The translations under genes and the position numbers were made by a program. The notes under the pieces are model-generated. The model made no database searches, was not told where the DNA came from, and saw only the letters and a list, made by a program, of their open reading frames with translations. This document shows positions 2,598 through 60,200 of a DNA stretch of 64,000 nt, piece by piece; position 1 is the first letter of the stretch; every line of letters starts with the position of its first letter. The stretch is from Octopus sinensis (Eukaryota), in contig NC_042999.1 in NCBI RefSeq assembly GCF_006345805.1, positions 116,932,001 to 116,996,000 on the forward strand, read 5' to 3'.

Positions 2598-4098
2598 TCT
2601 CTTATTATAAAAGGCAGATTTTATCTGCCTCCCTTTGGGAGTTATACAAATCTACAATATAGGATTTCTTCAATTACAATTTACCTAGCATTTTTAAGAG
2701 TACAATGCATCGCGTCATGGCAGGTCCAGTTTTTAAAATTTAAACTCCAATTAAGCAAAATTTACAGAAAACTCACATTCTGGTGTGTGTGTCAAATGCT
2801 TTTCTTAGTCTGGTTTACACCACACGCAAACGCACACACACAGTGGGCAAGGAATAAAATGAAAGTAATTCACTTACTGTAGTGAGTGATTCTTTCACTC
2901 TGCCTCCCACTTCCTCTTTACACACATAGAAAAAACTTTTATTTTTTTACATAAGTAATGAGAGCGAAAGAGACTAAGAGAAAGCGATTGTATGACGAGG
3001 GAAGTTCCTTTGAAGTTACCGTGCATGGGACTCATTGATGTACATGTGTGTGTGTGTGTGTTTGATGGAGTGTGGGAGACAGACAGTATGTTGTGTAAGT
3101 GAAGTGCTTCTGTTAGTGTGTGTGAAGAGACAGAGAGAGTAATGTGTGAAAGAGAGAGATAACTGAAATTTTTTACTCGGTTTATGTGTATATGTATGTA
3201 TGCATGTATGTGTGTGTGTGTTTTTGTGTATGTATGTGTGTGTGTATGTATGTATTTATATATAAAAGAAAGGTTGTGTGTCTGTCTACTCCGATTTAGA
3301 TTCCTAACTACTCCCACATTTTGCGATGCAGTTTAACCAAAACCGGGTATCTTATAGTCGTGATTCATATCGAGCCCTTCTGGGTATTAGCGCGCGTTTA
3401 CGATGAGTCTATGATTTTACAAATAATTTACCATCATTTTTTTCCATTTTAATGTATATTTTTTAAAATAAACGGAAGTAACTCTCAAACTTCACACCAA
3501 TATGCGTGCTCATATGCGACGTAATATCACATCACCAGCATTTCCTCACACCCTCCTTGCACTTGGCGAAGGCAAAATACCAGGGGATGAAAATGGTAAT
3601 ATTGCCATCGATTCCATTTGTACCATTGTTAAGACGCCTTCTGATCTCAGAGATGCAGTGTTCCCAGATTTACAAGCTAATTATCAGAATATGGATTGGA
3701 TTGGCAAAAAGGCTATACTGGCCCCGAGGAATAAAACTGTTCACCATATTAATGATGAAATGCTAAAACTCATTCCTGGGGAAGTCGATGTATATCAGTC
3801 TATCGATACAACTCCTGACCCAGAGGACGTCATCAACTATCCAATAGAGGTACTCAATTCCTTTGAGCACCCCGGACTACCACCACACTTTCTCAAACTT
3901 AAAGTTAGTGCCCCTATAATGCTCATCAGAAATTTGGTTCCCCCAACACAATGCAATGGCACACGTTTGGCGTTAAGTCCTTATCTCCCACCGTAAGCTT
4001 ATTTCAATATTTGCCTGAATAATCATCATAATTCAGTGCAATCATTAACAGTACTTTCAAGCAATTCAGCCCCGAGCAACGCCGGGCAATTCTGCTAG
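2598..4098 (+). mobile_element. Non-autonomous Helitron carrying a Pif1 helicase fragment
   Basis: 5' TC(TCTTATTATAAAA) preceded by A at 2597; 3' CTAG (4095-4098) followed by T; subterminal GC hairpin CCCGAGCAACGCCGGG (4071-4086); no TSD; internal Pif1 fragment. Confidence 0.85.
3502..3996 (+). pseudogene. Fragment of Helitron RepHel Pif1-family helicase
   Basis: Motifs (LHT)NMR, AILAPRNKTV..IN and LPPHFLKLKVSAPIMLIRNL...CNGTRL are typical of Helitron Pif1 helicases. It lacks the Rep domain and Walker A, and the match is lost after CNGTRLA. Confidence 0.9.
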
Positions 4099-5915: not shown

Positions 5916-5955
<40 letters not shown>

Positions 5956-6510
5956 GAGTGAGAGAGCAGTGCATGCCATCAAAGTGACACTGGGGTAAAA
6001 TATATGAAGCCCAGTATACTCATCATGACTACCCGTCTGATAAGGGTACACCAGGCACATGCATCACAACCATATGTGTGTAACATAGTGATCTCATATC
6101 AAGATAAACAGTGCATAACCTTGCAGGTGGGGCCCAGTTAGAATTTTCTTCTGGTCGAGTAGCCTATCCTGCTCAAAAGGTCCCTGAATAAGGGTTGTTT
6201 AAGGATGTTGAACAAAACACCCGTGTTTCCAAAGGTGAATTATTCAAACCCCCCAAAATTCCACTCAATACATGGCTATGATGCTCCTCAACTACTTCCG
6301 CTTGTGATCAGAGATGCACATATCATCAGCCACTAAGGGACATGGCCAACTGGTTATGGTCAAGCAACTGAAAAGTAAATCTGTGGTATTGAGCAGAATA
6401 TTTGCTGTAGCCCATCTTTTATACCAAGACAAAACAACGTACATGATACTTCCAATCAGTTAAGATCAGAAGCCATGAGAGCCACTGCCTGGTACTGTAT
6501 CAGAGCATTT
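5956..6510 (-). mobile_element. ~555-bp interspersed element flanked by (TAA)n; second copy at 56691-57250
   Basis: Reverse-complement near-identity to 56691-57250 over the whole length, with the same ends; both copies sit in ATT/TAA microsatellites. Confidence 0.8.
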
Positions 6511-6548
6511 ATTATTATTATTATCATCATCATCATTATTATTATTAA

Positions 6549-6770
6549 GGTAGCAAGCTGGCAGAATTGTTAGCACATTGGAGAAAATGCTGAGCATCAT
6601 TTCTTCTGACACTTTACATTCTTAGTTCAAATTCAACTGATGTTGACTTTGCACTTCATCTTTTCGTGGTCAATCAAATGCATACCTGTTAAGTACTGGG
6701 TTTGATGTGACTGACTAACTATCCCAATTTCCCCTTAAACTGCTGGCCTTGTGCCTAAATTTGAAACTAG
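6549..6770 (+). mobile_element. tRNA-derived SINE family B (diverged)
   Basis: GCTGGCAGAATTGTTAGC head, AGTTCAAATTC box-B-like motif and a CTTCATCTTTTCGTGGTCAAT central domain shared with many copies. Confidence 0.7.
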
Positions 6771-7778: not shown

Positions 7779-7956
7779 CGTCCTGTCGTTATGTTCTGAG
7801 TTCAAATTCCGCCAAGGTCGACTTTGCCTTTCATCCTTTCGGGGTCAATAAATTAAGTACCAGTTATGCACTGGGGTCGATGTAATCGACTTAATACCTA
7901 TGTCTGTCCTTGTTTGTCCCCTCTATGTTTAGCCCCTTGTGGGCAATAAAGAAATA
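7779..7956 (+). mobile_element. SINE family B, 5'-truncated, well conserved
   Basis: GAGTTCAAATTCCGCC; GCCTTTCATCCTTTCGGGGTCAATAAA central domain (resembles the conserved Meta/Nin-type SINE domain); tail ending GGGCAATAAAGAAATA. Confidence 0.85.
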
Positions 7957-11840: not shown

Positions 11841-13271
11841 TTTCAAATTTTTGATAGAAGGCCAGCAATTTCAGGTGAGGACTTAAGTTGACTATATTCA
11901 CCCCAATGTTCAACTGGTACCTATTTTCTCAACCCAAAAAGGATGAAAGGCAAAGTTGACCTTGGAAGAATTTGAACTTAGAATGAAAAGATGGACGAAA
12001 TGCTTAGCATATTATAATATGCTTAGCATATTAAAAGTTTGGTTTCCTGAAAAAAGTACCACTTATAGTATGACCCCACTCAAACCCCATCTGCCCACCC
12101 ACATTTTTTTCTTAACTGAAAATTAATTTGCTTATAGAATTTTTCACATATTTTAATAGTATTTTTAGCATAGATTTTATTATATTTTTAAAGTAATTGA
12201 TACTCTTCGTTTTAAGTAATGATAAATTGCATTTATCTGTACTGCCAATTTGTCTCACCTTACCTTGCTATTTCCTTTTTGTTTTTTTCTTTCTTTCCCT
12301 TCCTCTTCAACCCCACTTTTCTTCTTCTCTTTTCATAATCAGTTATTTTATCACTAACCATACTGTTCACTATTCACTTTCACACCTTTCTAATAAATAA
12401 ATATATACCTCTCTTTTCTTTTCCTTTTTCCAATGTTTAACATCTTCTTTCTATTATCCATTTCCCTATCTATTTTCTTTCGCAGCAAGTTGGCCTTCCT
12501 TTTTTCTTATTAAACAAATTAACACTAAACTTTGTGTATTCAGTATCACACAGTGTTATATCCACATACTCCTTTTTCTTTTTTTATTTTTTCATTATCA
12601 TCTCTCTGTGTTTCCTTATCTATTATTTTCTCTTCTTTCTCTCTGCTTCTTCCTATCTACACCATGTTGTTTTTATCATTCTGTGCAGTTTATTTGCAGC
12701 TTTCGTATCTAAATATGCTTTCAGTTGTTAAATGTCGAAATTTTAGAATCTAAATGTTTACAAACCATGTTTTAACCAAATATTTATCATATATTTATTA
12801 CCAATACAAACATAGGGATTAAATAGAGTTCAATCATATCACAATACTGTAATGTGAAACCCTTAGTAACACCTAAAAAATGTTACAATTTCTATTATTA
12901 TTGTTGTCGTTGCTGCTACTATTGTTGTTGTTGTTTCGCAGATATGTTAGAATACCTGACAAAATTCCTTGAGTTATTTGTACAATACTTTTATATTCCG
13001 AATTAAAAATCCTACCATGGTCAACTTTGCTTTTCATCCTTTTGGGTTAATAAAACAACATATTATCAGGTGCTAAGATTATTGGAATTGGCTAACCCAC
13101 TTCCCTCAAAAATGCTTGCCTTGTACATAAATTAGAAGCAATTGTTGTTGCTGTTGTTATCCGTGATACTTTCACTCTGGCAGGTGTTATACCAACACTA
13201 TACCAAAAGAGGGAGCCATATCCAAGGGTCAAAGGTCCTTTGGGTCATTCCTTCTCTTTCAAGTTTCTGAC

Positions 13272-13484
13272 TTCTTTATTGCCCACAAGGGCTAAACATA
13301 GAGAGGACAAGCATATTAAGTCGATTACATCGACCCCAGTGCATAACTGGTACTTTATTTATCGACCCCGAAAGGATGAAAGGCAAAGTCAACCTCGGCG
13401 GAATTTGAACTCAGAAAATAACGGCAGATGAAATACCGCTAAGCATTTCGCCTGGCGCGCTACTGTTTCTGCCAGCTCACCACC
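13272..13484 (-). mobile_element. SINE family B, near full length
   Basis: Reverse complement of the family-B head, central domain and GGGCAATAAAGAA tail. Confidence 0.85.
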
Positions 13485-14059: not shown

Positions 14060-14470
14060 TGGTAGTGAGCTGGCAGAATTGTCAGCAAACTGAATGAAAT
14101 GCTTAGTGGCTTTTCGTCCATGTTTACATTCTTAGGTCAAATTCTGCCAAGGTCAACTGTACCTTTCATCTTTTCAGGATTGATGAAATAAGTACCAGTT
14201 GAACACTGGGGTTGATGTAATCAACTAGCCCTTCCCCACAAAATTTCGGGTTGTATACATATAGAAAAAAAGGCATTATTATTATTATAAAGGCGGCAAG
14301 CTGGCAGACTCATTAGCATGTCTGGCAAAATGCTTAGCGGTATTTCGTCTGCTGTTATATTCTGAGTTCAAATTCCACAGAGGTCAACTTTACCTTTTAT
14401 CCTTTTGGGGTTAATAAATTAAGAACCAGTGAAACACTGGAGTCAATGTAATTGACTTATCTCCTCCCCT
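14060..14470 (+). mobile_element. Two tandem SINE family B copies
   Basis: Two heads (GGTAGTGAGCTGGCAG at ~14061, GGCGGCAAGCTGGCAG at ~14292), each followed by the central domain. Confidence 0.8.
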
Positions 14471-22540: not shown

Positions 22541-23463
22541 TACTACCAAGTTACTGTTGATTCGGGTAGCCGGTCCTCAACTGGGTTAACATTCGACAGA
22601 CTCTCCTCCTCCAATTCATTCTCCACATTCAACAGTCTTTTATAATGGCATTTCCAAGCCTCTATCTTTGCAGAATCCTTAAATGCAAGTGCACCATCAT
22701 CCATGTGGGCACATTTCTCTCCCATGTCATCGCACTTTTCTCTCACACCCTGTCTTGCAATCCGAAATACTTCAGCTGTTTGGTCCTCACTATGCTGAAC
22801 ATAGGCAAACTTCTTCTTTTCTACTTCTCCCTTATGCCTGTCTCCTAGCTTTCCTTCTAGCTATCTGATACAGTTCCCTGCTGCCCCCACTCTTCCAGGC
22901 CTTTCAGGCCTGTTTCTTTGCTCAAGTAGCCCTGTCTATTGTATTGTTCCACCACCACGTTACCCTGGCTCTGGAAGGGGCTTTGCACCAGCCACAGATT
23001 TGGTCTTTGGCACTCAGTAAGTTGTCTTGCAGGAATTCCTAGTTGCCCTCTAAGTCACAAGTTTGTAGCTCCTCCTCCTTCTCAAATTTCTCAATTAGGA
23101 TGTCCCTAAATATTTGACCATATGAAGCGTCCTTAAGCTTCCAAATCTTTCTTTTCCAGATTGATCTGCTCCTTGGCATCCTTGTGACCTGGAGTCTAAA
23201 TTTGCTAATGACTAGTCTATGCTGGGATGTACATTCTTCACCAGGAAGGGTCTTTGTATTTAAGAGTAACCATGCATCACCCTGTCTAGTGAGAATGAAA
23301 TTGATCTGGCTAGCAGTCACCTGATTTATAGATTATCAGGTGGCTGGCCTGCTTCCTGAAGTTGGTGTTGCAGATCGATAGGTTATTTGCATCACAGAAC
23401 TCCAGTAGCTTTATTTACATTATTTACAATTGACGGATATTTGTCCTCATCTTGTTTGTTGTT

Positions 23464-23509
23464 AACACAATGTTTCAGCTGATATACCCTCCAGCCTTCA
23501 TCAGGTGTC
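23464..23509 (-). ncRNA. Minimal type I hammerhead ribozyme motif (family A)
   Basis: GACAC-CTGATGA-A-GGCTG..CAGCT-GAAAC-ATT-GTGTT on the minus strand; stem III altered (CGT>CAT inferred). Confidence 0.7.
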
Positions 23510-23597
23510 TTGGAGAAATTTCGAACCTGGGTTCTCATTCCTAAGGTATTTTTTGATATTGTTGTTGTTGTTTGTTGTTGTTGTTGTTGTTGTTCTT

Positions 23598-23764: not shown

Positions 23765-23833
23765 AACAACAACAACAACAACATCATCAAAAAATACCTT
23801 AGGAATGAGAACCCAGGTTCGAAATTTCCCCAA

Positions 23834-23879
23834 GACACCTGATGAAGGCTGGAGTGTATATCAGCCGAAACATAGTGTT
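23834..23879 (+). ncRNA. Minimal type I hammerhead ribozyme motif (family A, inverted copy)
   Basis: GACAC-CTGATGA(23839-45)-A-GGCTG...CAGCC-GAAAC(23867-71)-ATA-GTGTT; stems I and II pair. Confidence 0.75.
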
Positions 23880-24381
23880 AACAACAAACAAGATGAGGAC
23901 AAATAACTGTCAATGTAAATAATGTAAATAATGTACATAATTCCTCATCTCTTAAATATAGAACTCCAGTAACCTTGTTCCTTCTTCATTTCAGGAGCCA
24001 ATTCCATGATCCCCCATGTCCACCATGGAAGATACCAGGCTGCCATCTGACATGCCTATTGAAATCCCCAGCCATGGAGATTCCAATGGGCATGTCGGAC
24101 AGCAGCCTGGTATCTTATATATATATGTATGTAATGTATGTATGTAATGTATGTATGTATGTATGTATGTATGTATGTGTATGTATGTATGTATGTATGT
24201 ATGTATGTATGTGTGTATGTATGCATGCTTCTATACGACTGAAATCTGAATCATTGCTGACACGGGATGAATAGCTAACATCTGAATGACTAATGTCATT
24301 AATGGTATGAATACATGAGTATAGTCACATATAATAAATACTCTGCTACTTTGATTATTATATGTTATTGTCATTGTTGTT

Positions 24382-30300: not shown

Positions 30301-32504
30301 GCCTGAGATTAGGTGGGAGGCAACTAGTCGGTTACTTCAACCCCAGTGTTTCACTAGTACTTAAGTTTATCAATCCCGAAAGGATGAAAGGCAAAATCAA
30401 CCTTGGTGGAATTTGGACTCAGAATGTAAAAATGGATGAAATGCCACTAAGCATTTTGTCTGGCATGCTTATGATTCTTCCAGCTTGCCACCTTGGTTTG
30501 TTAGAAATAATAACAAATATTTACCTTATATCACACCCTAATATTTAAAAAGAAAATGCAGTCACATTGAATAATACACAATGAATAAAATTTGGGAACA
30601 CCATTGATTATAGGTGTGCTAGATCAAAATTAACCTGGGGAATAAACAACATCAAGATTGGTTGGTCCCATATAGTTGTTGTAGTTAAAGAAAAGGAGAC
30701 AGTTCATAGAGGTTTTTGTGAAATTCACACATCTAAATTTAACACTTCCAAATCAGCCATACTTAAATGCTCATACCTCTGAGATGTAGGAGTGTGCTAG
30801 ATGAGTGTTGCCCTTCCTTAAAGGTGCTAAATTTTCTAAATAATAATTCCGTTCTTGCAGTATCACGATATAAACTGACTGTAATTTGTTTTCATATGTA
30901 ACAATATACATTCAGACACGGATTCAGTCAGACTGAAGTCATGTTATGACTAGAAATAACTTTTAAAAAGTTTGTATATCTATTTTTGAGTAATTACTTA
31001 AGCCAGAGCGGTAAGTTCAGCAAGGAAGTACTCTCTGACAATAACAATCATATGCTCCTGCTGGGACAGTGCAGCTGTCACACACACACACATGCACACA
31101 TAAATGCACACACATGCATGTATGCAAGCAGGCATACATGCACATATGCTTACCCCTCCCAATTCCTCTCTCACCACTGCCACCACCAAACACACACCAT
31201 GCATTCACTGCTAATTGCCTGATAGGCAACCCTCTATTATCATTAAACATTCTAGTAGAAAGTATTCTCTCCTCTCTATTTCTTCTATACAAGTGAAACA
31301 GACTCTTGTGCTTTCTGAACTTGTTGACTCTCTGCCACCACACTTTACTAGTCTTTCACTTGATGGAATACACCTGCCTCTCTTCTTGTCATTACTTTTA
31401 CAGAACAGCTGACAATTGCTTTTATCCCTACCAAACCCCCTTCCCCATCCTACCATAGTAAAACATGATTTACAACCCATTTTTTCTCCACAGGGGAGCT
31501 TTATCTGAACCCCACTGTCCTATTTATATTTCCCTATTTCACTCTTCCAACTCCTCCTATGAAGTGAGGTGGACCTAAAAGAAAAAAAAAACCAATGGGA
31601 TTTCTACCTGTTATCATCTAAGGTTTTTATATAAAACATAGGTATAAGAGTTTATGATAAAGCCTCCATATAATCACTTACATTACTAAAAAGAGTAGCT
31701 AAATCTCCATCATACCACTCCCTACTTACTATCCTATAAATTGGAATTACTTATGCATTACAATATCTAGTTCTACATACATCACTATGCCTTGAAAAAA
31801 TATATAAACAGTTGTGATTATGGCTGGAATACCTTTGATCATAGTGCTGTCTGTTCAATCAGTTTTGACCTTGGGCTAATCGACATGTGTGCGTGTGTAT
31901 GGGTGTGTGTGTGTGTGTGTGTGTGTGTATCTGTGTGTGTGTGTGGGTGTGTCTGTGTGTGTGTGCATGATAGAATTAAAAGCCTGCTTTAGTAAAGAAA
32001 AGAATATTGCCAAAGTAGAGGGTAGCAGCTGTACAAAATAGAGAAACAGGAATAATAAAAGAGAGAATGGAAAGATATGAAAAAAAAATTAATAAAAATG
32101 AATGAAAGACAGAATGATGAAAGAAGGAAAGAGAAGCTCCAATCCATTAGACTGAGTTGTTCTTTGTTAGATAAATACAATAACAGAAGCAATAGGATGA
32201 ATATTGGACACTTCATAGAGCATACTGGCTCCTAACAAACAGACTTATGCACACATCTTCATACACATACACACAGACACAAACACACATGAATACATAT
32301 CCACAAATATACACATGCATAAATGCATACACATACAGGAACAAATATATTAATCCCCACACACATAAATACTTGTATACACACTCTTAAACACATACAT
32401 ACTCATACACAAGAATGCAGTTACATATACACATTAACATATATATGTGCATGTATATATATGTGTATATATATATTATATATATATATATATATATTGT
32501 ATAT

Positions 32505-33429: not shown

Positions 33430-34152
33430 ATGAAATTATTGTATACAGTACTCAGGTGCACCACAACTTGTCAGAAAGTGCATATAAAGTACATGCAGTA
33501 ATGTAAAAATGTCTGGAAAGCGAACAATGTATGAGTCAGATACATGCCTGTGTGTGTATGGAGGGGAGAAAATCAGGTGTAGTGTTGGCGAATCTCAGAA
33601 AGCATGGAAGTTTTGAAGGATGCAGTGCTCCGACAACTAACAACTGATGCCGATAGTTTGTTCCATGCTTCAGTAACTCACAGCATGAAAAAATGTTTCC
33701 TGAAGTCATGGGAGCTGTGCTGTTTTCTGACTTTGTAAATATGTCCACGGGTGTTAGATAGGTGGAGTTTGAAAAGGTGCTCAGAGCTATTGTTTGTACG
33801 ATGGTTGATAATTTTATGGGTGTCTGCCAAGTCAGCTGTCAGACGTCGGAGTTTCAATGTGTCCATGCCCAGGGAAGTAAGGCATTCAGGATATGGCAAA
33901 TGCCTGATGGAGGGTATTCTTTTGGTTGCATGTCGCTGAACAGCTTCCAGACGATTGATATCCTGAGCAAGATAGGGGTTCCAGACCGGTGATGCAAATT
34001 CCAGGTGAGGTCTTACCATAACTATATAAAGCCGCAGATAGATAGCCGGAGAGCGGCTCACAAAGGATTTGGTGAGTGATGCCAAGACACCCTCAACCTT
34101 CTTGACAATTTTAGCGATGTGTTTTGTCCAACGCAAATCACTGTCGATACCT
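33430..34152 (-). mobile_element. 5'-truncated CR1-clade LINE (RT C-terminus and 3' UTR)
   Basis: ORF 33678-34343 contains DLRWTKHI, LYIVMVRPHLEFASPVWNPY, LEAVQRHATK, TRGH and RKHFF, followed by WNKL; hallmark CR1 ORF2 C-terminus. Confidence 0.9.
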
Positions 34153-34806
34153 GAAAAGTCTGTCTTAGATAAAACATATTTGGGATAGAAAATTCTAGAG
34201 AGCTGTAACTCTAGGAAGGAAATATTAAGGAAAATGCTTAGTGCAGTATTTGAGAAGTGAGTGCCTGTAGGTGTGTTGAAAGAAGGTGGGATGAGTGGAA
34301 AAGTATCAGATTTGCTATTGGCGTATAAATTGCTGTCAGGCATCTAGTAAAAAAAATAACAACTAAATTCATACATTACTTGGATTTCATTTGCTTTTTA
34401 TCCTTCAAGTGTTGGCCAAAGTGATATGCCAATAAATATGAGTTAATCTTATTCAGTGTATATTCATTCTTCAACAAAATTTGGTCTTAGGTCTCATGAA
34501 AAATCCATTATTATTAACCCATTATTATTAATATGACTTTTTTTTTCATCTTCTTGTATAAAATTAGTTTTTCTAATTATTAACTTCATCTGAAGAAAGG
34601 AAAGATTTTTCAGCATTTACAGTTACACTGCATTTAAGTAGGTTTCATCTCTGAGCTTATAGGTGAGGCTGGATTCAAACTGGGCTCCTAGTGTTGATGG
34701 TCTTTGTATCCATAAGCCCACTGATACACACACACACACACGCACACATATATAAGATAAAACTTACTTGGAAATGGATGCGTGGCATTCGATCATATAG
34801 TAATAT

Positions 34807-36413: not shown

Positions 36414-37720
36414 CTATTTAAAAGCCAGATAAGTGTAACGCCGCCAATGGGGGCATCGAAAAGCCGACTGTAAAAGCCCGTTTACCATCCGGCCTCTGGC
36501 AAACAAAATATGGAAGAGTTCGGAGACACAAAGGTTGCACTGCCTTCTGCCCCTATCAAATGGGAGGGCCACCGACAAATTGACCTCCAGCCTGTAGCTT
36601 AAGTTCGTACCTTCAGTCGCCATATTAGTTACTGAGTCCCGGGGTCTGGCGCGGTTCATGTCCCGAAAAGTGCGTAATGGGGAGACACGCAAAGACATCT
36701 TGAGGATGAGGCCCCTACATAAGTGAAGACATCTGAGTCCGTGTTGTAAACCTTGCATTGGTAGACGGCGTTTTTGATCTTGGAGTTCGCCGACGTGAAT
36801 CTTATTCTGCTAGGATTAGTTTTGAAATAGAACTGCGTTCCTGTCACTATATTCGTTCAGAGACCTGCAGCCGCTACTACTCTATTTTCCACTACGTCAC
36901 TATTAACTATAGGAATAACCCCTGATTCTCCACTATCTATCAGGGTGTTGTCATTGCTACTGCCCGTGGTGCTGCTATTGCGGGAATATGCTGGGGATGC
37001 TATTGGGGCTCTCTACCCTACTCCCATTGGTACCGCTCACCACAACACCCCTATTTATAACTATACCCCTAGTGGGTACTCCCTGGCTGGAGCTGAGATT
37101 ATGTGTCACTGTACTGGCTCTCATATCATTATTACTACTATAATTATTCCTACTGAGCATTAAACCGGGAGCGGAAGAGGCTTGTGCCTCGGAAAAAAGG
37201 TGATAGGTCTTAGTAAGTAGCCTATTATTATGGGAGGCGATTATCTGGGCGAGGTTTTTAGTGTTGGAGAAAGCTATCCTAACTTTATGCGAGTTAACCG
37301 TGGAGTAATATTTGGAATTTCTGGGGAATTTGGCGATGGCTTGTCTAAACATGGGGGAGGTTAGTTCTAATCTGCCTACCAAAGGGGATTACAACCAATA
37401 TGCTTATCCTATCAGTGTGATGGGTGGGACGCCAGCTCTCGCGTTCGGGTGGGTGATTCTCGGATGAATAACGGGTCTTGGTTAGTGTAAGACCTCCGGA
37501 CCCGATAATTATCCTGTTCGCTAAATTAAATGCGGGAGCGACTACCCCGGCATCGCCGCGCTCCCGTCCTTACTTAAAATGTTAATGTTATAATACGGCC
37601 CTATCCTGATGACCGAATGATGGCATCGGAAGGGCCGGATCAATATAAATTACCTTCTGCCTATAACCGGCCTTGGATAGTGCGGCGTTATAAAATTCCG
37701 CTTTCTGCATAAAAATATCG
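36414..37720 (-). pseudogene. Penelope RT C-terminus + GIY-YIG endonuclease, frameshifted
   Basis: DIFMQKAEFYNAALSKAGY; FPRNSKYYSTVNSHKVRIAFSNTKNLAQIIASHNNRLL; NAVYQC...TYVG (GIY-YIG); CNLCVSE...RCPH C-terminus. Confidence 0.85.
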
Positions 37721-42767: not shown

Positions 42768-42793
42768 ATATATATATTTTTATTTATAGAAGG

Positions 42794-42844
42794 AGCTTCT
42801 ACAGGACTAGAACTGTTTCATTCAAGAGAAATCTTCAGGAAGCT
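42794..42844 (-). ncRNA. Type I hammerhead ribozyme motif (family C, inverted copy)
   Basis: Exact reverse complement of 43920-43970. Confidence 0.8.
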
Positions 42845-43467
42845 AGTTAACAAGAATTGTATTGGCATTTATACATTTAGGCAGGTTTAAAGGGGTGTTG
42901 GTGGGGGACTTTTTGGGGGTAGGCATAGCGCAAAAAATCATACTTGGGGGAGTGGTCAAGGAGTCAGTGTTAAATTAGATAGGAGAATAAATAAAAAATA
43001 AAAAATAAAAAATAAAAAATAAAAAATAAAAAATAAAAAAAATAAAAAATAAAAAATAAAAAATAAAAAATAAAAATATATATATATATATATATATATT
43101 GTTTTAGGTAAATAAGGAGATTCTCACCCATACCTCTACACATACACACATATATACACTCACACATACATATACATATCTACACATACACATATATATG
43201 TATACATACACACACTCACTTGCATACACGTATACACACATGTATATATACACACACGACCACACATACATATACACACAGAAAAATATATATATACACA
43301 TACACACACATACTCACATACACGCATACACACACAACAAATCCATACACACACATGCACACACAGCACACTAGTCCCTATATACACATATATACACATA
43401 CACACATATATATACACCCACACATACACATACATACACATATATATACATACATACACATACATAT

Positions 43468-43528
<61 letters not shown>

Positions 43529-43919
43529 TATACACATGTGTACCCATGCATACCTACACATACACACATATATATATACATATACAAATACAGACCCATT
43601 CCCTAATTTTAATTTTATTATCTTCGTTTATTACTTTTGTTATCTTTGGCCGCTTGGTCACAAACATCTTGGCTATGACAGCCAGACCATTTATCCGTCT
43701 ACTGGAAAACAATTACTCATTTATTTTTTATTTTTTATTTTTTATTTTTTATTTTTTATTTTTTATTTTTTATTTATTCTCCTATCTAATTTAACACTGA
43801 CTCCTTGACCACTCCCCCAAGTATGATTTTTTGCGCTATGCCTACCCCCAAAAAGTCCCCCACCAACACCCCTTTAAACCTGCCTAAATGTATAAATGCC
43901 AATACAATTCTTGTTAACT

Positions 43920-43970
43920 AGCTTCCTGAAGATTTCTCTTGAATGAAACAGTTCTAGTCCTGTAGAAGCT
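43920..43970 (+). ncRNA. Type I hammerhead ribozyme motif (family C)
   Basis: Stem I AGCTTC/GAAGCT; CTGAAGA 43926-32; stem II TTC-TCTT-GAA closed by T.T; GAAA; stem III ACAG/CTGT; GUA triplet ending at 43964. Confidence 0.85.
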
Positions 43971-44056
43971 CCTTCTATATAATAAATTAATTTTACTCTG
44001 CTATGTATTGAGTACCTTATTTACTGTGGTTAACCCCGAATCAACCCGGGACCTAC

Positions 44057-44089
<33 letters not shown>

Positions 44090-44490
44090 AGGCTTCGAAT
44101 GATTTGTCTGTGTTCCGTGTTCGTCCCTTCCTGTATTTCATGTTCATTATATATAAAAACATTCATTCTTATATTATTGCGGCGTTACGTGCACCCCCCC
44201 GTTTGTTTGTCCAATTTTAAACCCTGCACGACTTCTATACACACTGTCTTTCCTACCCGCCATTGCTTCTTCACCAAACTATTTTGGCGCCCTCCGATTC
44301 TTCCCCCCTCTTCCTCCCATCCTCCTTAATCCCTCTTTCTCCTTTTCTCTTGGTCACTGATTCTGTCCCCTGCCTCCACCCTCTTTGATTCCCTCTCTCT
44401 CTGTCTCTCTTTCTCTCTCTCTCCTGCGACCTGCTGATTCTTAACCATTCTGTTGGCCATCGTATCTTGACCAACATGTGTCCCCGCGGA

Positions 44491-44525
44491 TCAGTTGTCT
44501 GTTCGTCAGTTTGAGTTCGGTCGTG
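44491..44525 (+). promoter_or_regulatory. Putative internal Pol II promoter (Inr + DPE-like)
   Basis: TCAGTT initiator 3 nt inside the element's 5' end and GGTCGTG at about +27 to +33, as in internal LINE promoters. Confidence 0.5.
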
Positions 44526-44685
44526 TTTTTTACGCTCGTAAAATTCGGTAAAAAAAGATCAAAAAGAATTGTTGTTGTTGTTGTGGAAATTTTGAACGGC
44601 GTTAAAGCGGTTTCGCGTTCCACTGGTTCTGCGCGTTACACTTTTTCTGTTTTGACGGCCGTTTTGGCCTGTCAGGCGGGAGGAG

Positions 44686-46074
44686 ATGGATGACCACTCC
44701 CTAGTAGAGGAGTCGGAGGAAGAATGGATATTTGAGAGCTTGTCGGAGACATCGAACTCTGAAGACGAGCAAATCGGTGATGTAAATAATGTGGAGACAA
44801 AAAACAGGAAAACGTACGCAGGAGTTGCAAAAAAGAAGACGGAACAGGAAAAAGAAATAAACCTAGAAAAATTGCCAGGTTTCCAGAGGTATATGAGGAA
44901 GGACAGCGGCGAGGTGGAACTGGAACCACCACCAAAGAGAAAGGAATGGTACAATAAGAGGACCATAATTTACAGGGTGTTCGTGAACGAAAGAAAGAAA
45001 ATAGAGATCGTAAACATGGAATGGATAGAGGAGGCCCTGAGAAGATCGGAGGAGGAAATCATTTTTCTGACTCGAGGATCGAAGTACGGTACTGTAGTGG
45101 TGCATTTTAAAAGTGAGACTGCAGCGAGGAGGATGGCGGTGAAGGCGGTGAAGTCAGAAAGGGTAACACTTTTACCTATGTACTTGAATAGAAGGATCAC
45201 ACGAGTAAGGGTGGAGGGAGTGCCACCAAACGTGGAGGCTGAGTGGATTGTGGCGGCTGTGATCAGCGGCCACGAGGAGAAAGTAGATATTCTCCATGCC
45301 TCGGTCAAGACCGAGGGCTGGAGAGGCGTAATAGTGGAGCTGAACGCGCAGGCGGAGAGCGAGGTACTGGTGGACCTGGCGGAGAGCATTAAATTGGGAG
45401 ACGTGATTATGAGAGTGTGGGTGGAGGGCAGAGCTCCACGTTGTTACAAGTGTGGCCTGAGGGGCCACATAAGAGCCTTCTGCCCTCCCCCACCAAGAGA
45501 AAAGGAAATCGTTGAGGAAACTCCAAAAGAGGAGGCCCCAAAAGAAGAAATTAAAGAGAAGCAGACGGAAAGGGAAATGACAGAGGAGGAGGAGATGCAA
45601 AAAGAGTGTGAGGAGGGCAGAAAGAAGAGAAAAGGAAAGAAAAGGAAAAACTGTGCGAAGCCCCAACCCACCCCAATACCACCCACACCCTTGGAGACCC
45701 ATCCTGCCCCCGCAAACAGCAATCCCACCCACTCCCCGCCTACAAGAAAAACGAAAACAGACACACAGAACATACAAAAGCCCCAGTCCTACTTTTTATG
45801 TGTTGTGGGGAAGGGGGATACTGAGAACGCAAGAAGGCTTTTTGAAGACGATGTATGGCAGGAGTATGAGGACGGAAGCTATGCGGTATTCGATTTTGAA
45901 CTCATGGGCTCTTTGATGAGCAAGTGCAATGAACTACGTATAAATTGTTTATCAGCATATATGAAGGATGATATGATAGAGAGATATGAGAGAGAAATGA
46001 AAGGTGAGGTGAAAAACTTTGGAATCGTGATAGGAAACGGAAAGGTAAGTGATGCTGGCGGAGGGGGCCGTTAG
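44686..46074 (+). CDS. 462-aa ORF1p/Gag-like nucleic-acid-binding protein with a CCHC zinc knuckle
   Basis: Uninterrupted ORF; TYAGV motif, RRM-like segments (RITRVRVEGVPPNV), RVWVEGRAPR-CYKCGLRGHIRAFC (CX2CX4HX4C) as in Tx1/L1-clade ORF1p; basic KKRKGKKRK patch. Confidence 0.85.
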   Translation: MDDHSLVEESEEEWIFESLSETSNSEDEQIGDVNNVETKNRKTYAGVAKKKTEQEKEINLEKLPGFQRYMRKDSGEVELEPPPKRKEWYNKRTIIYRVFVNERKKIEIVNMEWIEEALRRSEEEIIFLTRGSKYGTVVVHFKSETAARRMAVKAVKSERVTLLPMYLNRRITRVRVEGVPPNVEAEWIVAAVISGHEEKVDILHASVKTEGWRGVIVELNAQAESEVLVDLAESIKLGDVIMRVWVEGRAPRCYKCGLRGHIRAFCPPPPREKEIVEETPKEEAPKEEIKEKQTEREMTEEEEMQKECEEGRKKRKGKKRKNCAKPQPTPIPPTPLETHPAPANSNPTHSPPTRKTKTDTQNIQKPQSYFLCVVGKGDTENARRLFEDDVWQEYEDGSYAVFDFELMGSLMSKCNELRINCLSAYMKDDMIERYEREMKGEVKNFGIVIGNGKVSDAGGGGR

Positions 46075-46629
46075 CATCGCTTTCATGTTATCATTTTTTC
46101 ATTTTAACATTCATTTAATCATAATTTTAATCGCATTGTTTTATGTCCCCCATGTTTTGTAATGTTCCCTCTTCGTGGCCCCTAGTGGGTAATAAAGAAA
46201 TAGACCAACATGTGTCCCCGCTACCGAAACGGTAATTATTTCTACGTCAGCTGCTATGTTGTTGTTGTTTTGTCTCATTTGGTCTAAAGTCGTATGACAA
46301 CCACCGTTATATATATTTTGTTTATTCATTACTGTTTTCAATTTCGTTTTCGTCTCTTGTATTTACATCCGTCTTGTGCGTTCACATTCCTGTCTTCTAC
46401 CAAGAAATCTAATGCTTACAGCTTAGTTTTTTTCTTGGGGCTGGCCGAGTTGGAGCAAATATCAGAATTGAACAGCCGAAATTTGCTATGATGATTCGGT
46501 GTCTGACTGAAGATTGAAGGCTTCGAATGATTTGTCTGTGTTCCGTGTTCGTCCCTTCCTGTATTTCACATTCATTATATATAAAAACATTCATTCTTAT
46601 ATATATATATATATATCTTTATATATATA

Positions 46630-47015
46630 TACGGTGGGCTTCTTTCAGTTTCTGTCTCCCAAATCCACTCACAAGGCTTTGGTTAGCCTGAGGCTGTAGT
46701 AGAAGACATTTGCCCAAGGTGTCACACAGCAGGACTGAACCCGGAACCATGTGGTTGGGAAGTAAGGTTCTTACCACACCTGTAACTTAGAATCAACATA
46801 AAGCAGTGACCTGGTAGAATTGTTAGCGAGTGGGGCAAAATGCTTATGAGTATTTCATCCGTCTTTACATTCTGGGTTCAAATTCTGCTGGGGTTGACTT
46901 TGTCTTCATCCTTTCGGGGTCAATAAAATAAGTACCAGTCAAGCACTAAGGTTGATGTAATCAACTAGTCTCCTCCCCTGAAATTTTAGGCCTTGTGCCT
47001 ATAGTAAAAAGGGTT
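46630..47015. mobile_element. SINE A head (minus, 46630-46780) and SINE B (plus, 46805-47015)
   Basis: Family-diagnostic motifs as described above. Confidence 0.8.
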
Positions 47016-51495: not shown

Positions 51496-52132
51496 ATTAG
51501 TTTTTCTCATTGAAGTGCAGTCACACTGGAGTTACCACCTTTTAGACCGTTCTATCAACCCCAGCATTTATTTCAATCTGGTACATATAAATCTTTTATC
51601 TATCTCTGTTTATTGAATGGCTAAGTTTCTTATTCGACATAAATGTTCCATTTTACACTGATATACATAATGCAGACACACACACAAATGTGTGTGTGTA
51701 TGTATGTATGTATGTATGTATGTATGTATGTATGCATTTATGAATGGATGGATGGATGGAAGTTTGCATGTATATGTGTGTGTGTGTGTGTGCGTGTGCA
51801 TTGTAATTGGGTCATCACATACAAAATCATTTGCTTCGTCTTCAGGTCAGGCACTATCCAAATATTGTGTTGAAATTTGATATAGGCCACTTACTCTCAT
51901 TGTCAATTTAAATCTTTTAATATTTGGTCATCTACACTATCCCACATACAGAGTGAATTGTATCAGAAAAATGAATGAAAATTCAGCAGTAACTATATTA
52001 TGATGGGAAGGTAGAGAAAAGTTTGGTAAGATTGACTAGTAAATAGAGATAGAGAGAGAAATGTGAGGTTACAAATAAAAATAAAAATTAAATAAAATAA
52101 AATTGAAGGCCTTGTCCTGTATATATACATAC

Positions 52133-52189
<57 letters not shown>

Positions 52190-52195
<6 letters not shown>

Positions 52196-52383
52196 ATAGA
52201 AGGAGCTTCTACAGGACTAGAACTGTTTCATTCAAAAGAAATCATCAGGAAGCTTCCTGGTGATTTCTTTTGAATGAAACAGTTCTAGTCCTGTAGAAGC
52301 TCCTTCTATAAAATAAATTAATTTACTCTGCTATGTATTGAGTACCTTATTTACTGTGGTTAACCCCGACTCAACCCGGGACC

Positions 52384-52390
<7 letters not shown>
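52190..52390. mobile_element. Family C element reduced to a 126-bp palindrome of two back-to-back hammerheads plus the 3' extension
   Basis: 52190-52315 is a palindrome centred on AAGCTT (52250-55) with one mismatch; minus arm CTGATGA, plus arm CTGGTGA. Confidence 0.9.
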
Positions 52391-52480
<90 letters not shown>

Positions 52481-54004: not shown

Positions 54005-54212
54005 TTTTCTACTCTAGGCACAAGGCCCAAAACTTTTGGGGAGGCGGCCAGTTGATTAGATTGACCCCAGTATGCAACTGGTACTTTTATCGACCCTCAA
54101 AAAATGAAAGGCAAAGTTGACCTTGGCAGAATTTGAACTCAGAACATAGCAACAGGCAAAATACCGCTAAGCATTTCACCTGGCATGATAATGTTTCTGA
54201 CAGCTTGCCGCC
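54005..54212 (-). mobile_element. SINE family B
   Basis: Reverse complement of the family-B head and central domain. Confidence 0.8.
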
Positions 54213-56209: not shown

Positions 56210-56630
56210 TTCTTTCTACTATAGGCTCAAGGCCTGAAATTTTGCGGGAGGTGGGCAGATACAATTTCATTGTCTCCAGTGCGTAACTGGTACTTATTTT
56301 ATTGACCCCAAAAAACTCAAAATGTGAGGGCAGACGAAATACTGCTAAGTATTTTGCCTGATGTGCTGATAATTGTGGCAGCTCACTACCTTCGTAATAA
56401 TAATAATCATAATCCTTTTTACTATAGGCACAAAGCTGGAAATTTTGTGGGAAGGGGTAAATCGATTACATTGACCCCTGTACTCAACTGGCACTTATTT
56501 CATAGACCCCCTAAAGGATGAAAGGCAAAGTGGACCTTAGCAGAATTTTAACTGAGAATGTAAAGATGGGTGAAATGCACCCACTAAGCATTTTTCCCAA
56601 CATGCTAACAATTCTGCCTGTTCACTGTCT
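56210..56630 (-). mobile_element. Two tandem SINE family B copies
   Basis: Family-B motifs occur twice, separated by (TAA)n. Confidence 0.75.
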
Positions 56631-56644
56631 TCATAATAATAATG

Positions 56645-56690
<46 letters not shown>

Positions 56691-56694
<4 letters not shown>

Positions 56695-57250
56695 GCCCTG
56701 ATGCAGTACCAGGCAGCGGCTCTCATGGCTTCTGATCTTAACTGATTGGAAGTGTTATCATGTACATTGTTTTGTTTTGGTATAAAAGATGGGCTACAGC
56801 AAATGTTCTGCTCAATACCACAGATTTGCTTGTCAGTTGTTTGACCATAACCAGTTGAGCATGTCCCTTAGTGGCTGACGATATGTGCATCTCTGATCAC
56901 GAGCAGAAGTAGTGGGGGAGCATCATAGCCATGTGTTGAGAGGGATTCTTTGGGGTTTGAATAATTCACCTCTGGAAACATGGGTGGTTCTTTCAACATC
57001 CTTAAACAACCCTTATTCAGGGACCTTTTGAGCGGGATGGGCTACTCAACCTGAAGAAAATTCTAACTGGGCCCCACCTGCAAGGTCATGTGCTGTTTAT
57101 CTTGATATGAGATCACCATGTCGCGCACATATGGTTGTGATGCATGTGCCTGGTGTACCTTTATCAGACGGGTAGTCATGATGGGTATATTGGGCTTCGT
57201 ATATTTTACCCCAGTGTCACTTTGATGGCATGAACTGCTCTCTCACTCAA
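56691..57250 (+). mobile_element. ~560-bp element inserted in (TAA)n; second copy at 5956-6510
   Basis: AAATGCCCTGATGCAG ... CTCTCTCACTC(AAT)n; same boundaries as the other copy. Confidence 0.8.
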
Positions 57251-60200
57251 TAATAATAATAATAATAATGATAATAATAATAATATATAACATGGGAAGG
57301 GACATGTGTAAAATGCCATTCTGTGAAAAGAATCACTGAGCTTCAAAGCACTGAGGGTCTACACCAATTATCATCATCATTTAACATTCATATTCCATAC
57401 TTGCATGGGCTGAACAGTTTGACGGATCCAATGAGATGAAGGACTGCATTGTGCTCCAGGGTTTGCTTTGGCATGGTTTCTGTGGTTGCATGCCCTTCCT
57501 AATGCCAACCATTTTACAGTGTGTACTGGGTGATTTTTTTCATGCCACCAGTACTAGTGAGGTCACTATGTTGCTCGCAAGTCAACAAACTCATGGAAGG
57601 AAGATGTTGCGTCCATATGTTAGATGAGGGTTACAGCAAGAGGGAAGAGGTCACAGTAGAGCAGGTTCTTGTAGAGGAGGTGCATGGCTACTCACATTTA
57701 GGAAAGAGAATGAGAGGGAATTAGAGACATCTCCACGGAAAATAGACAGTAGTAATGAGGTATCCAGGTGGCACCCCAGGTAACAGCAGTAGTAGTATAT
57801 AGGGAGAGTAGAGGTTTGCAAGAGTTCATAAGGGAAGAGATAGGGGGAGTGGGAGAGGGAAGTAGGCAACATCTGTAAAGACTGGGGAAGGGGGACGCAC
57901 AAGTTGGTGGCAGGGGTGTTGACTACAGGGATATTAGCAGTAGGGTATATTAATGACACTATTGACATGTGGTGAGAAGAGAGATGACATGTTTGGGCAG
58001 GCTTAGAGTAGTAATGATACTATTGACAGAGGAGAGAAGAGCGAGATGATGTGTTTGGGTAGGCTAAATAAATCAAACTCATTTTTGTAGCATTCTATGT
58101 TGAACTGAAGTTTCATTAAATTGATTTTATGGTCATGAAGATATTTGAGAGAAGAGGTTCTATCAGAAATCTATTTTACAATGTTGGCACTGGTTTAATA
58201 AAAGTGGTTGATTGAACCAGTAGGATGTTGTACTTGTGGTTCCATCCACTATTGTTCCATCACTTTACATTCTGGGGTTAAATGCTACTGTCACTTTTGT
58301 TGTTAGTACTTCTGGTTAAAAAACAAAAGCACCAGTTAAGTACTGGGGTAATTGTTGTTGTTGTTGTTGCTGTTGTTAAGGCAGATTTGATTGCATGCTG
58401 GGCAAAATGTTTAGTAGCATTTCTTCTGTTTTTATTATTCTGAGTTCAAATTCTTCTGAGGTCAACTTTGGCTTTTGTCTTTTCAGGGTTGATAAAATAC
58501 ATACCAGTTGCATACTGGAGTTGATATAATCAACTTATCCCATCTCCTGAAATTGCTGGCCTTGTGTCAACATCTGAAACCAATATTATATTTCTTCTTT
58601 CCATTCTGTTTCTCTCTCTTTCTGGCTTAATGAGCTTAATGTATGGTAAATTACCCCTCTTTTTTCAATCCTGTACGACCCACTATCTTAAAATCTGGCC
58701 TCACTATCTTTTAGTATGTATTTCTCAGTCTTACTCTGAGGAACTTCTGCTGTCAGCTTACAGCACTTTTTCAGCTATTACAGACATTGTGCATTTTATA
58801 CATAGACAGTGCAGCTTGTCTCTCTTGTATAGCAGCTGGTGCCTTTTGTGCTCAGCTATTCTCTTAAGGTTTGCCTCTCAAGCAGTTTAAACCTTATATA
58901 TTCAACAGCCCACACTTAATCCATTTTATTCATTCTTCACAGGTTTTTTCCCCATTCGATGACCATATCTTATTAATGTGCAGTATCAAATAGGTAAATT
59001 CATTATTATTGAGACATTGTTTTATAGTTGGTTACTCTTCTTGTCACTTTCTTACCTATTTTTCAAGTAAGGGATCTCTTATTCTACATGCAATCAAAGG
59101 CATAATGTGAGGAGATAATTTATTAACAAGCTGGTAACAATAATACTACCTGTACATAGCAACTTTCATTGAAGTAAACATGTAAACACACACACATATC
59201 ATTTATTCATGTGATCATATATTTAACCAGATGTATGTTAATATTTTATATGTTCGGTTATATAGTTACATAGGTGTATGTCAATATTTTATATGTATGG
59301 TTATATAGTTACTTAGGTGTATGTTACATTTGTTGGATTTAATTGCATGATATTGGCATTGTATTGGATTACATTATAAGTTTGATTTTCTGTTGTCCTG
59401 TAGCAAATGAAAATATTATTTTTAGCACAAGACATAAACTCCCTGCAAGCTAAGTCTACAAGGTATTAATGTATTAGTTGTCCATTAATAGTATTTTAAA
59501 GTTATTTATGTTGTTGGCTATTTCTGTACATATGTTGCAACTAAGGCTTTGAATTCTCATAATTTTACTAGAGAGATTTCACATTACCTTTTTGTGTCCT
59601 CATTGATTTCACTAACTAATCAATTTTAAATTTTGACTGACTTCTTTCTGCTGCACAGAACAAGGTCACTTCACTATCAGCACAGGAGTTCCGTGATCTC
59701 TTCTACTGTTTATTACAGCCTTCTCCTATGTCATCTCTCCTGCAATTTATTACCAAACAAATAAAATCACTGAGTTACTGAGTTCAAGTCCTGTATGACC
59801 CACTATCTCTTAGTATTTATTTCTCAGTCTTACTCTGAGGATCTGCTGTCAGCACTTTTTTGGCTATTACATACATTGTGCATTTTTATTGCAGTTATGA
59901 ATGTCTTATCAGAGACTTTTTTGAAACTTACTCATGATTGAATTGGATCCCATATAGAAGGTGATTTGACTTTCATTCATGTAAGTTAAGTTGTAGGACC
60001 TTGGACTCCTGAGGTTTAGGAAATGATTAATTTGGTTCAAGTAATATAAACAATAAAGTTTTGATTCACAGATATTTTCTCTCTAATTTTCAGTTTTTAC
60101 CATTTTAGACATTGTACAATAAGATTCAGAGCATCAGCATAAAAACGGTCCTGAATTATTTTGCTTTTGCCTCAGAGACTAAGATACATACACACACACA

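Follow-up and report, generated by a model that had tools for sequence, protein, structure and literature searches.

Three types of non-autonomous LINE in which ORF1 is present were named by Kojima in 2018, i.e., HeT-A, which comes from Jockey, HAL1, which comes from L1, and Ag-Sponge, which comes from CR1 (PMC5786205). HAL1 encodes ORF1p only and depends on ORF2p supplied in trans, and its coding capacity has reportedly been retained over long periods (PMC5753468, PMC3627910). Ag-Sponge, which arose by internal deletion (PMC3414825), is a bipartite non-autonomous LINE of the CR1 clade in Anopheles gambiae with ORF1 kept (PMC5786205), and about 40% of drosophilid telomeric families are without ORF2 (PMC13534243). 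Tx1 LINEs, e.g., the crocodilian Tx1/SINEU, insert into other repeats and have tails in common with SINEs (PMC4494074).

Here we describe an element in a 64-kb window of Octopus sinensis DNA, the window being the whole stretch that was analyzed (64,000 nucleotides). Like HAL1, the octopus element encodes an ORF1 protein only, without ORF2. The ORF1 of HAL1 is, however, of the mammalian L1 type II (coiled coil-RRM-CTD), whereas that of the octopus element is predicted to be of type I (RRM-RRM-CCHC), and the octopus element differs further in its host, its lack of poly(A) and a tail held in common with a SINE; mammalian L1 and HAL1 carry a poly(A) tail. With HeT-A and the drosophilid telomeric elements (Jockey clade) it shares an ORF1-only layout with CCHC, and some head-to-tail joints occur in the octopus family too. 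In contrast to HeT-A, the octopus copy is interstitial, single and TSD-bounded, its 3' UTR measures 128 nt, its ORF has a single knuckle instead of three, and there is no telomeric array here. Ag-Sponge, likewise a LINE that kept ORF1, is CR1-derived and from a mosquito, and is set apart from the octopus element by description rather than by sequence. Tx1 resembles the element in the RRM/CCHC layout of its ORF1 (PMC5203782), insertion in a repeat and SINE-type tail, but carries an APE-RT ORF2 that the octopus element does not have. The octopus family is likely to work like HAL1, HeT-A and Ag-Sponge yet to be a member of none: it is not HAL1 because the ORF1 type and poly(A) differ, and not HeT-A because telomeric arrays are absent. 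The literature searched contained no report of an ORF1-only LINE from cephalopods or any other molluscs; it included passages of PMC5753468, PMC3627910, PMC9115989, PMC3747384, PMC11203168, PMC3414825 and PMC11481361; most subscription journals, Repbase, Dfam, bioRxiv supplements and the O. vulgaris consensus library lie outside this scope and may hold an entry.

Structure of the element and its insertion site

The initial annotation, made from the sequence alone, had described a 1715-bp unit with a perfect 19-bp TSD, a 5' UTR of about 200 nt, one intact 462-aa CCHC ORF and a 3' UTR of about 130 nt, all of which we recovered, the UTRs measuring 198 nt and 128 nt. The locus and its surroundings are organized as follows:

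44089..44468, no strand assigned: left part of the interrupted host repeat, its 86-nt terminal direct repeat spanning 44089-44174; summed contig depth thousands to tens of thousands (DNA-like runs)
44469..44487, + strand: left TSD copy, exact match to 46203-46221
44488..44685, + strand: 5' UTR, 198 nt, with an Inr-like TCAGTT at 44491-44496, a second at 44506-44511 and a DPE-like GGTCGTG at 44519-44525
44686..46074, + strand: single intact ORF, 462 aa, predicted to be type I LINE ORF1-like (ORF call, structure model, 319 relatives at E<=0.001)
44929..45435, + strand: predicted pair of RRM-type domains, covering roughly aa 82-168 and 168-250 (model and fold matches)
45442..45483, + strand: single CCHC zinc knuckle (C253, C256, H261, C266), invariant in 8/8 close relatives
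46039..46074, + strand: last 12 ORF codons, a block kept in sister subfamilies with differing upstream sequence
46075..46202, + strand: T-rich 3' UTR, 128 nt, with a small predicted hairpin at 46178-46190 followed by AATAAAGAAATA; last 42 nt in common with a SINE tail
46203..46221, + strand: right TSD copy, exact match to 44469-44487
46222..46602, no strand assigned: right part of the interrupted host repeat, its 86-nt terminal direct repeat spanning 46517-46602; summed depth 2.7e4-4.2e5 (DNA-like runs)

The two copies of the 19-bp direct repeat, GACCAACATGTGTCCCCGC, are 100% identical, and the element is the 1715 bp between them, 44488-46202. Among 1904 random window pairs of similar spacing, the longest common stretch was most often 6 nt and usually 5-8 nt; 17-19 nt was reached by 6/1904 pairs, which may overlap the element's own TSD. 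At its 3' end the element terminates in AATAAAGAAATA, which abuts the TSD, and poly(A) is absent. The tail hairpin, of 4-5 bp, displayed zero two-sided compensatory changes in the three sequences compared. Apart from the main ORF, only one 80-aa out-of-frame ORF was present among + strand ATG ORFs of at least 80 aa inside the element, and neither an RT nor an endonuclease was matched when the main ORF was scanned with Pfam. Given that only 128 nt separate the ORF stop from the TSD, there is no space for ORF2, the absence of which had been correctly noted in the initial annotation.

The proposed start at an Inr/DPE-like promoter holds loosely. Both TCAGTT and GGTCGTG are present, but the DPE-like motif lies at +27 relative to the Inr-like start, one base short of the canonical DPE spacing of +28. 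The stretch 44492-44570 is covered by contigs in 3/4 sequencing runs, and the 5' UTR is, by its motifs, likely to be an internal Pol II promoter. Towards the other end of the element, a perfect splice-donor-like motif, AAG/GTAAGT, was found at 46042-46050 within the last 12 codons. In another subfamily these 12 codons resemble 3' UTR, with an in-frame stop just upstream (loose letters of public run X1).

The element lies inside another repeat, a nesting that the initial annotation had missed; this outer repeat is 780 bp long, has terminal direct repeats of 86 nt and is itself set in (TA)n. This host repeat has no second copy in the 64-kb window, yet is very deep in public runs, and by contig depth in three large DNA-like runs it is far more abundant than the element. 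In run X6, which is small (64 million letters) and of a kind not on record, element depth exceeded host-flank depth, the opposite of the three large runs. An Rfam scan of the whole window yielded zero matches at gathering score, with two chance-level matches only around the element (E 0.54 and 0.67). The idea of a hammerhead ribozyme in the host repeat was thus unsupported.

The ORF1 protein and its relatives

Pfam analysis of the 462-aa ORF returned only the CCHC knuckle, C253-C256-H261-C266, which is present but under the cut-off (E 0.056), and a weak DUF4833 match; zf-CCHC was matched in 18/38 aligned family members. A structure model built from the 38-row alignment had a pLDDT >90 over aa 61-270. 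The best Foldseek matches of this model were tandem-RRM proteins (E 7e-5 to 2e-3), and VIA-align resolved two distinct RRM/ferredoxin-like units with Z scores of 7-8, which count as middling. At the level of fold, and with no sequence match to a named LINE ORF1, the protein is predicted to be a type I LINE ORF1, i.e., RRM-RRM followed by one CCHC knuckle. Type I ORF1s are defined by one or more RRMs directly upstream of a CCHC knuckle and are carried by I, Jockey, R1, Tad1, L2, CR1 subgroup 3 and plant L1 elements (PMC4120745). Tx1 is among the clades with an RRM/CCHC ORF1, and non-mammalian RRM/CCHC ORF1s have been described as consistent with Tx1 (PMC5203782). As type I ORF1s are spread across many clades, the layout shows the protein's kind and not its clade. 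The label "Tx1/L1-type" given initially is compatible with the RRM-RRM-CCHC layout, but this layout also occurs in I, Jockey, R1, Tad1, L2, CR1 and plant L1, and there is no RT by which to place the element.

Transposase_22, the mammalian L1 type II ORF1, had no Pfam match in the ORF or in the 38 aligned members. The Atlas neighbours of the ORF protein included ZCCHC3-like RBD clusters (score 0.90); despite this, RBD_ZCCHC3-type Pfam models matched 0/38 aligned members at E<=0.05. Matches in a PDB sequence search were essentially to the knuckle and low-complexity parts only, and a viral fold library gave generic RRMs only. LINE ORF1 structures were absent among the fold matches listed, with which kinship is still compatible.

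HMMER searches identified 319 relatives at E<=0.001 (50%-identity cluster level), with short fragments making up the majority of the best 150 of the 319. Nineteen homologues were looked up, and the organism-named ones were octopod in 13/13 cases, i.e., Octopus sinensis, O. vulgaris, O. bimaculoides and Argonauta hians. The best near-full-core relatives were only 36-51% identical to the 462-aa protein, and an O. vulgaris gene model showed 98% identity over 48 residues close to the ORF C-terminus. No RT or endonuclease Pfam domain was found in the best 150 of the 319 relatives, which is uninformative as to neighbouring ORF2s because ORF1 and ORF2 are separate frames even in ordinary LINEs. Contigs of distant relatives measured up to 1703 nt for P0011 (6 contigs), 1849-1930 nt for P0015, P0154, P0155 and P0156, and 2209 nt for P0026; these lengths of 1.7-2.2 kb may fit an ORF1-only form, or truncation. 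For another distant relative, P0151 (861 aa), the contig measures 6159 nt and is large enough for ORF2. In O. bimaculoides gene models, P0033 is fused to LDL-receptor repeats, P0085 to WD40 repeats and P0058 to sequence that has no Pfam match, and fusion to seemingly unrelated sequence is the pattern expected of transposon exons.

Relative P0002 was excluded from alignment A1 owing to a repeat-driven knuckle match, and 31/38 rows (at least 140 core residues) were kept for the tree. The tree was poorly resolved: the window protein fell outside any supported subgroup, and O. bimaculoides and O. vulgaris members were scattered over several places. A word-indexed protein search gave 0 matches for the single ORF and 3 for the alignment, and 0 among proteins of 1508-4305 aa, the latter being a weak search. 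Four metagenome loci with knuckle-only matches were rejected, L001 and L003 as LTR-type gag/pol and L002 and L004 as unrelated knuckle proteins.

Copies and subfamilies in public sequencing runs

At least 20 public runs, under three organism labels, contain part of the element, and at least 13 contain half or more of its words; no RNA run is among those listed. Contigs were compared in 4 of at least 24 runs (X1, X3, X5 and X6), with contig depth taken as a proxy and not as copy number. The ORF was tiled by contigs 99-100% identical to the element. Contigs covering the ORF end and 3' UTR, at 46057-46172 (X1), 46061-46172 (X3) and 46057-46200 (X5), were unbranched, had 0 differences and began just 14-18 letters 5' of the stop codon end. 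Their depth was 259.6 in X1, 1473 in X3 and 1322 in X5, as compared with 162-238 in X1 (n=5) and 548-1070 in X5 (n=3) for the near-identical ORF-body contigs listed; the rarest contigs had depths of 3-7 (X1), 12-21 (X3) and 23-25 (X5). No contig among the pieces listed spans the entire element. Contigs with a variant at 46015 cross 46039, the variant lying 68 letters from the contig end in X6 and 31 in X5. In both X1 and X5 the junction contigs reach or exceed the depth of the ORF-body contigs, so that the short form is no less common than the body of the ORF, and with depth as proxy the ORF1-to-3' UTR short form is likely to be a multi-copy family norm. From the ratio of junction depth to that of two low-depth joints common to X1, X3 and X5 (about 6, 40 and 23-52, respectively), we infer roughly 25-60 near-identical copies. 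The core of the initial annotation, a young, multi-copy, ORF1-only non-autonomous retroelement, is supported by this junction at family depth. No second ORF1 copy was found in the 64-kb window.

Diverged contigs linked the Pro-rich region of the ORF to 46039 or 46178 in 4/4 runs, one of them at a depth of 736, the length skipped not being given. The joints run from 45750, 45804 and 45807 to 46039, and loose ends also lie before 46039. These diverged joints into a common 3' block suggest further ORF1-only subfamilies, and the 3' end would appear to be common to sister subfamilies. In X6, the tail was followed by two unrelated sequences, and the letters immediately preceding 46203 were of host type, a pattern like that of an unoccupied site. 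Other sequences also follow the tail in X3 and X5; those in X6, X3 and X5 alike are not assignable to the element's subfamily, and the loose ends could come from SINEs or sister families. Two tail-to-5' UTR joints (X3, X5) resume at about 44520, at the DPE-like motif, in differently diverged sequence, and could reflect copies inserted into the promoters of sister elements, an arrangement in tandem arrays, or chimeras between a SINE and a half-LINE.

Listed ORF substitutions were synonymous in 13/26 cases against 8.4 expected (p=0.045), a weak test that drew on 26 ORF rows among 40 of 184 differences and mixed subfamilies. These substitutions create no stop, and the sole listed ORF indel is of 3 nt. 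Eleven fell at second and 2 at first codon positions, unlike the usual pattern of purifying selection.

Common tail, candidate partner and competing explanations

Two SINE copies in the window carry the element's type of tail:

7783..7956, + strand: SINE copy with a tail matching the element 3' end (sequence match)
13272..13427, - strand: second SINE copy with a tail of the same type (sequence match)

The last 42 nt of the element matched SINE positions 7915-7956 at 81% identity (E 6e-4), and this tail match was reached in 0/5000 shuffles for both SINE copies, in agreement with the tail sharing first proposed. Minus the last 12 nt the match was weak, being reached in 179/5000 shuffles for the 7783..7956 copy and 814/5000 for the second copy. 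Judged on these alignments, the SINE tail match is beyond chance overall and is carried mostly by the last 12 nt and the 4-5-bp hairpin. Of 12 SINE copies reaching the end of the common body in the window, 2 have the element's tail and 10 have other tails. We take this SINE to be a tRNA-derived CORE-type element. An octopus CORE SINE, OR2, has been listed (PMC4758252).

No LINE or ORF2-bearing element with a matching tail was found in the 64-kb window, the CR1-like fragment there is without the element's tail, and the tail pattern matched nothing among viral contigs or prokaryote genomes. Thus, of the three-member LINE/half-LINE/SINE system originally envisaged, the common tail was seen but no autonomous partner was found in the window. 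Among LINEs recently active in O. vulgaris, L1-Tx1 and CR1 are the groups known for a separate ORF1. Recently active L1-Tx1 elements of that species comprise 13 families with 421 insertions and 2.29 Mb (PMC13282606), which on division gives an average of about 5.4 kb per insertion; active CR1, RTE and Dong-R4 families are described as well. With 13 active L1-Tx1 families in O. vulgaris, candidate partners are present in the genus.

We consider it very probable that the locus belongs to a self-mobile ORF1-only family in octopus. More specifically, it probably represents a young, multi-copy, non-autonomous non-LTR family that is ORF1-only and copied by a separate full-length LINE of the L1/Tx1 group. 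The family is likely to have been recently active. The partner is most likely an L1/Tx1-group LINE, which is favoured on three counts: the TSD is long, there is only one knuckle and the element sits within another repeat; a TSD length of 19 bp fits Tx1 habits. According to this model, the internal Inr/DPE-like promoter would drive a 1.7-kb Pol II transcript encoding the element's own RRM-RRM-CCHC protein, the fold of which is predicted, and this protein would coat and chaperone the RNA, the known function of ORF1. The ORF2 protein of the partner would then recognize the conserved 3' end, i.e., the hairpin and AATAAAGAAATA that are shared with one SINE tail class. Target-primed reverse transcription at staggered nicks is an established route to a TSD, and at nicks staggered by 19 bp it would have left the TSD observed, at the one site where an element copy landed inside a very abundant repeat.

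A different ancestor or RT donor, from the CR1/L2 group, the I group or ORF1-less RTE/Dong-R4, is an unlikely variant of this model. Type I ORF1s are known from I, Jockey, R1, Tad1, L2, CR1 subgroup 3 and plant L1 (PMC4120745), CR1, RTE and Dong-R4 are active in O. vulgaris (PMC13282606), and an element without poly(A), whose conserved hairpin end is common to a SINE, would suit such a donor. On the other hand, type I ORF1s of the Jockey lineage have three knuckles rather than one (PMC4120745), non-mammalian RRM/CCHC ORF1s are consistent with Tx1 (PMC5203782), and the window's CR1-like fragment does not have the tail. The 19-bp TSD and the insertion into a repeat, a habit reported for Tx1 (PMC4494074), also fit Tx1. 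A single insertion could instead have gained copies passively, either carried along by the abundant host repeat or through duplication in tandem or of a larger segment, in a family that is itself immobile. The abundance of the host repeat, the tail-to-5' UTR joints in X3 and X5, which indicate some head-to-tail arrangement, and a TSD read at one copy only speak for this. It is nevertheless very unlikely in view of the two unrelated sequences behind the tail and the empty-site-like host letters before 46203 in X6, as well as the existence of several subfamilies that have diverged but have a 3' block in common, although loose ends may come from SINEs or sister families.

Internally deleted or spliced LINE copies arise routinely, and the full-length reading comes from one copy only, so that the locus might be a lone derivative of an ordinary two-ORF LINE. 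A one-off lesion would be expected to be as shallow as the rarest contigs (depths of 3-7 in X1, 12-21 in X3 and 23-25 in X5), whereas the ORF-end/3' UTR contigs are identical across three organism labels, and in X1 and X5 their depth equals or exceeds that of the ORF body. The possibility raised in the initial annotation that only this copy is without ORF2 is therefore highly improbable. Its other proviso, a retrocopy of a host gene, is just as remote; a domesticated ZCCHC3-like RNA-binding gene that gave rise to a processed copy would be an example. Such an origin would account for an intronless ORF with a TSD and AATAAA, for the ZCCHC3-like clusters among Atlas neighbours at 0.90 and for relatives annotated as genes in Octopus assemblies. 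However, poly(A) is absent and the tail is common to a SINE. The protein family is rich in paralogues and fragments rather than a single host gene: its best near-full-core relatives are 36-51% identical, most of the best 150 of 319 relatives are short fragments, and O. bimaculoides and O. vulgaris members occupy several places in the poorly resolved tree. Loose ends inside the ORF (24 of 450 rows) resemble diverged homologous sequence and not intron starts.

Beyond the young L1/Tx1-copied family that we favour, a more speculative and rather doubtful scenario is an old octopod-wide ORF1-only radiation. Its many lineages, ranging from Octopus to Argonauta with only 20-50% protein identity, would have endured with no ORF2 of their own, each serving as the obligate part of a divided LINE system that packages the RNA. 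The partner might then be ORF1-less, the same tail would recruit a SINE, and new copies would favour insertion at the DPE-like motif of sister promoters.

RT-based TE classifiers are blind to ORF1-only elements, whose ORFs surface as 'uncharacterized' genes or host-gene-fused exons in Octopus annotations. If the proposed explanation is true, a young, intact octopus family would extend the short list of HeT-A, HAL1 and Ag-Sponge to a mollusc, and to an ORF1 of another type. It would also provide a natural three-way comparison of full LINE, half-LINE and SINE on one tail, and so address the question of why some LINE parasites keep ORF1 while SINEs manage without.

Joints and a conserved block in the element

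In the sequencing runs X3 and X5, head-to-tail joints were found in which position 46203, immediately past the ORF1-only element, is connected to approximately position 44520. These joints pick up at the DPE-like motif of the 5' UTR (GGTCGTG, 44519-44525), and do so in two 5' sequences of different divergence. The block 46039-46074, which contains a perfect splice-donor-like AAG|GTAAGT, is kept across subfamilies whose upstream sequence differs, and it is here that the match of the O. vulgaris gene model P0017 stops.

Amongst the protein relatives of ORF1, the gene models P0033 and P0085 of O. bimaculoides, and likewise P0058, consist of ORF1-family fragments joined to other sequence. Many distant relatives (P0006, P0009, P0013, P0018, P0026, P0051) share a short C-terminal motif ending F-P-x-D-V-G or similar, of which the ORF1 protein of the window has no clear form.

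Host repeat and other sequences of the window

The element interrupts a 780-bp host repeat, which is surrounded by (TA)n, lacks a long ORF and had no match in Rfam. Its layout is reminiscent of Penelope-like or circular-RNA-derived elements. In contigs of DNA-like runs its depth was 10-100x that of the element, contig depth not being a copy number. The host repeat, further repeats, a helicase fragment and open frames lie at:

44089-44487 and 46222-46602: the two parts of the host repeat, in which a 694-bp unit is followed by 86 nt that repeat its start
42779-43040 and 43724-43986: a pair of inverted repeats (263 bp, 99.6% identity) flanking a (TA/CA)-rich interior; ends similar to a shorter repeat at 52120-52420
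23411-23579 and 23765-23931: another pair of inverted repeats (169 bp, 94% identity)
5919-6708 and 56468-57285: 800-bp repeat, two copies in opposite orientation, 85% identical, with SINE parts inside
3472-3993 (+): likely a Helitron remnant, with part of a Pif1 helicase that matches PF21530 in Pfam (E 2.6e-12)
33681-34343 (-), 36417-37388 (-) and 13096-13428 (+): open frames

The open frames look like terminal portions of retroelement proteins of the CR1, Penelope and RLE types; a Pfam scan of all three gave zero matches at E<=0.01.

SINE bodies and their tails

The SINE body that is found with the element-type tail also carries at least two further tail types within the window:

6619-6716, 11883-11983, 14129-14226, 14354-14459, 30326-30424, 46861-46966, 54050-54155, 56264-56313, 56458-56566, 58438-58537: SINE body copies with other tails

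Since one SINE body occurs with several tail types, an exchange of tails has taken place.
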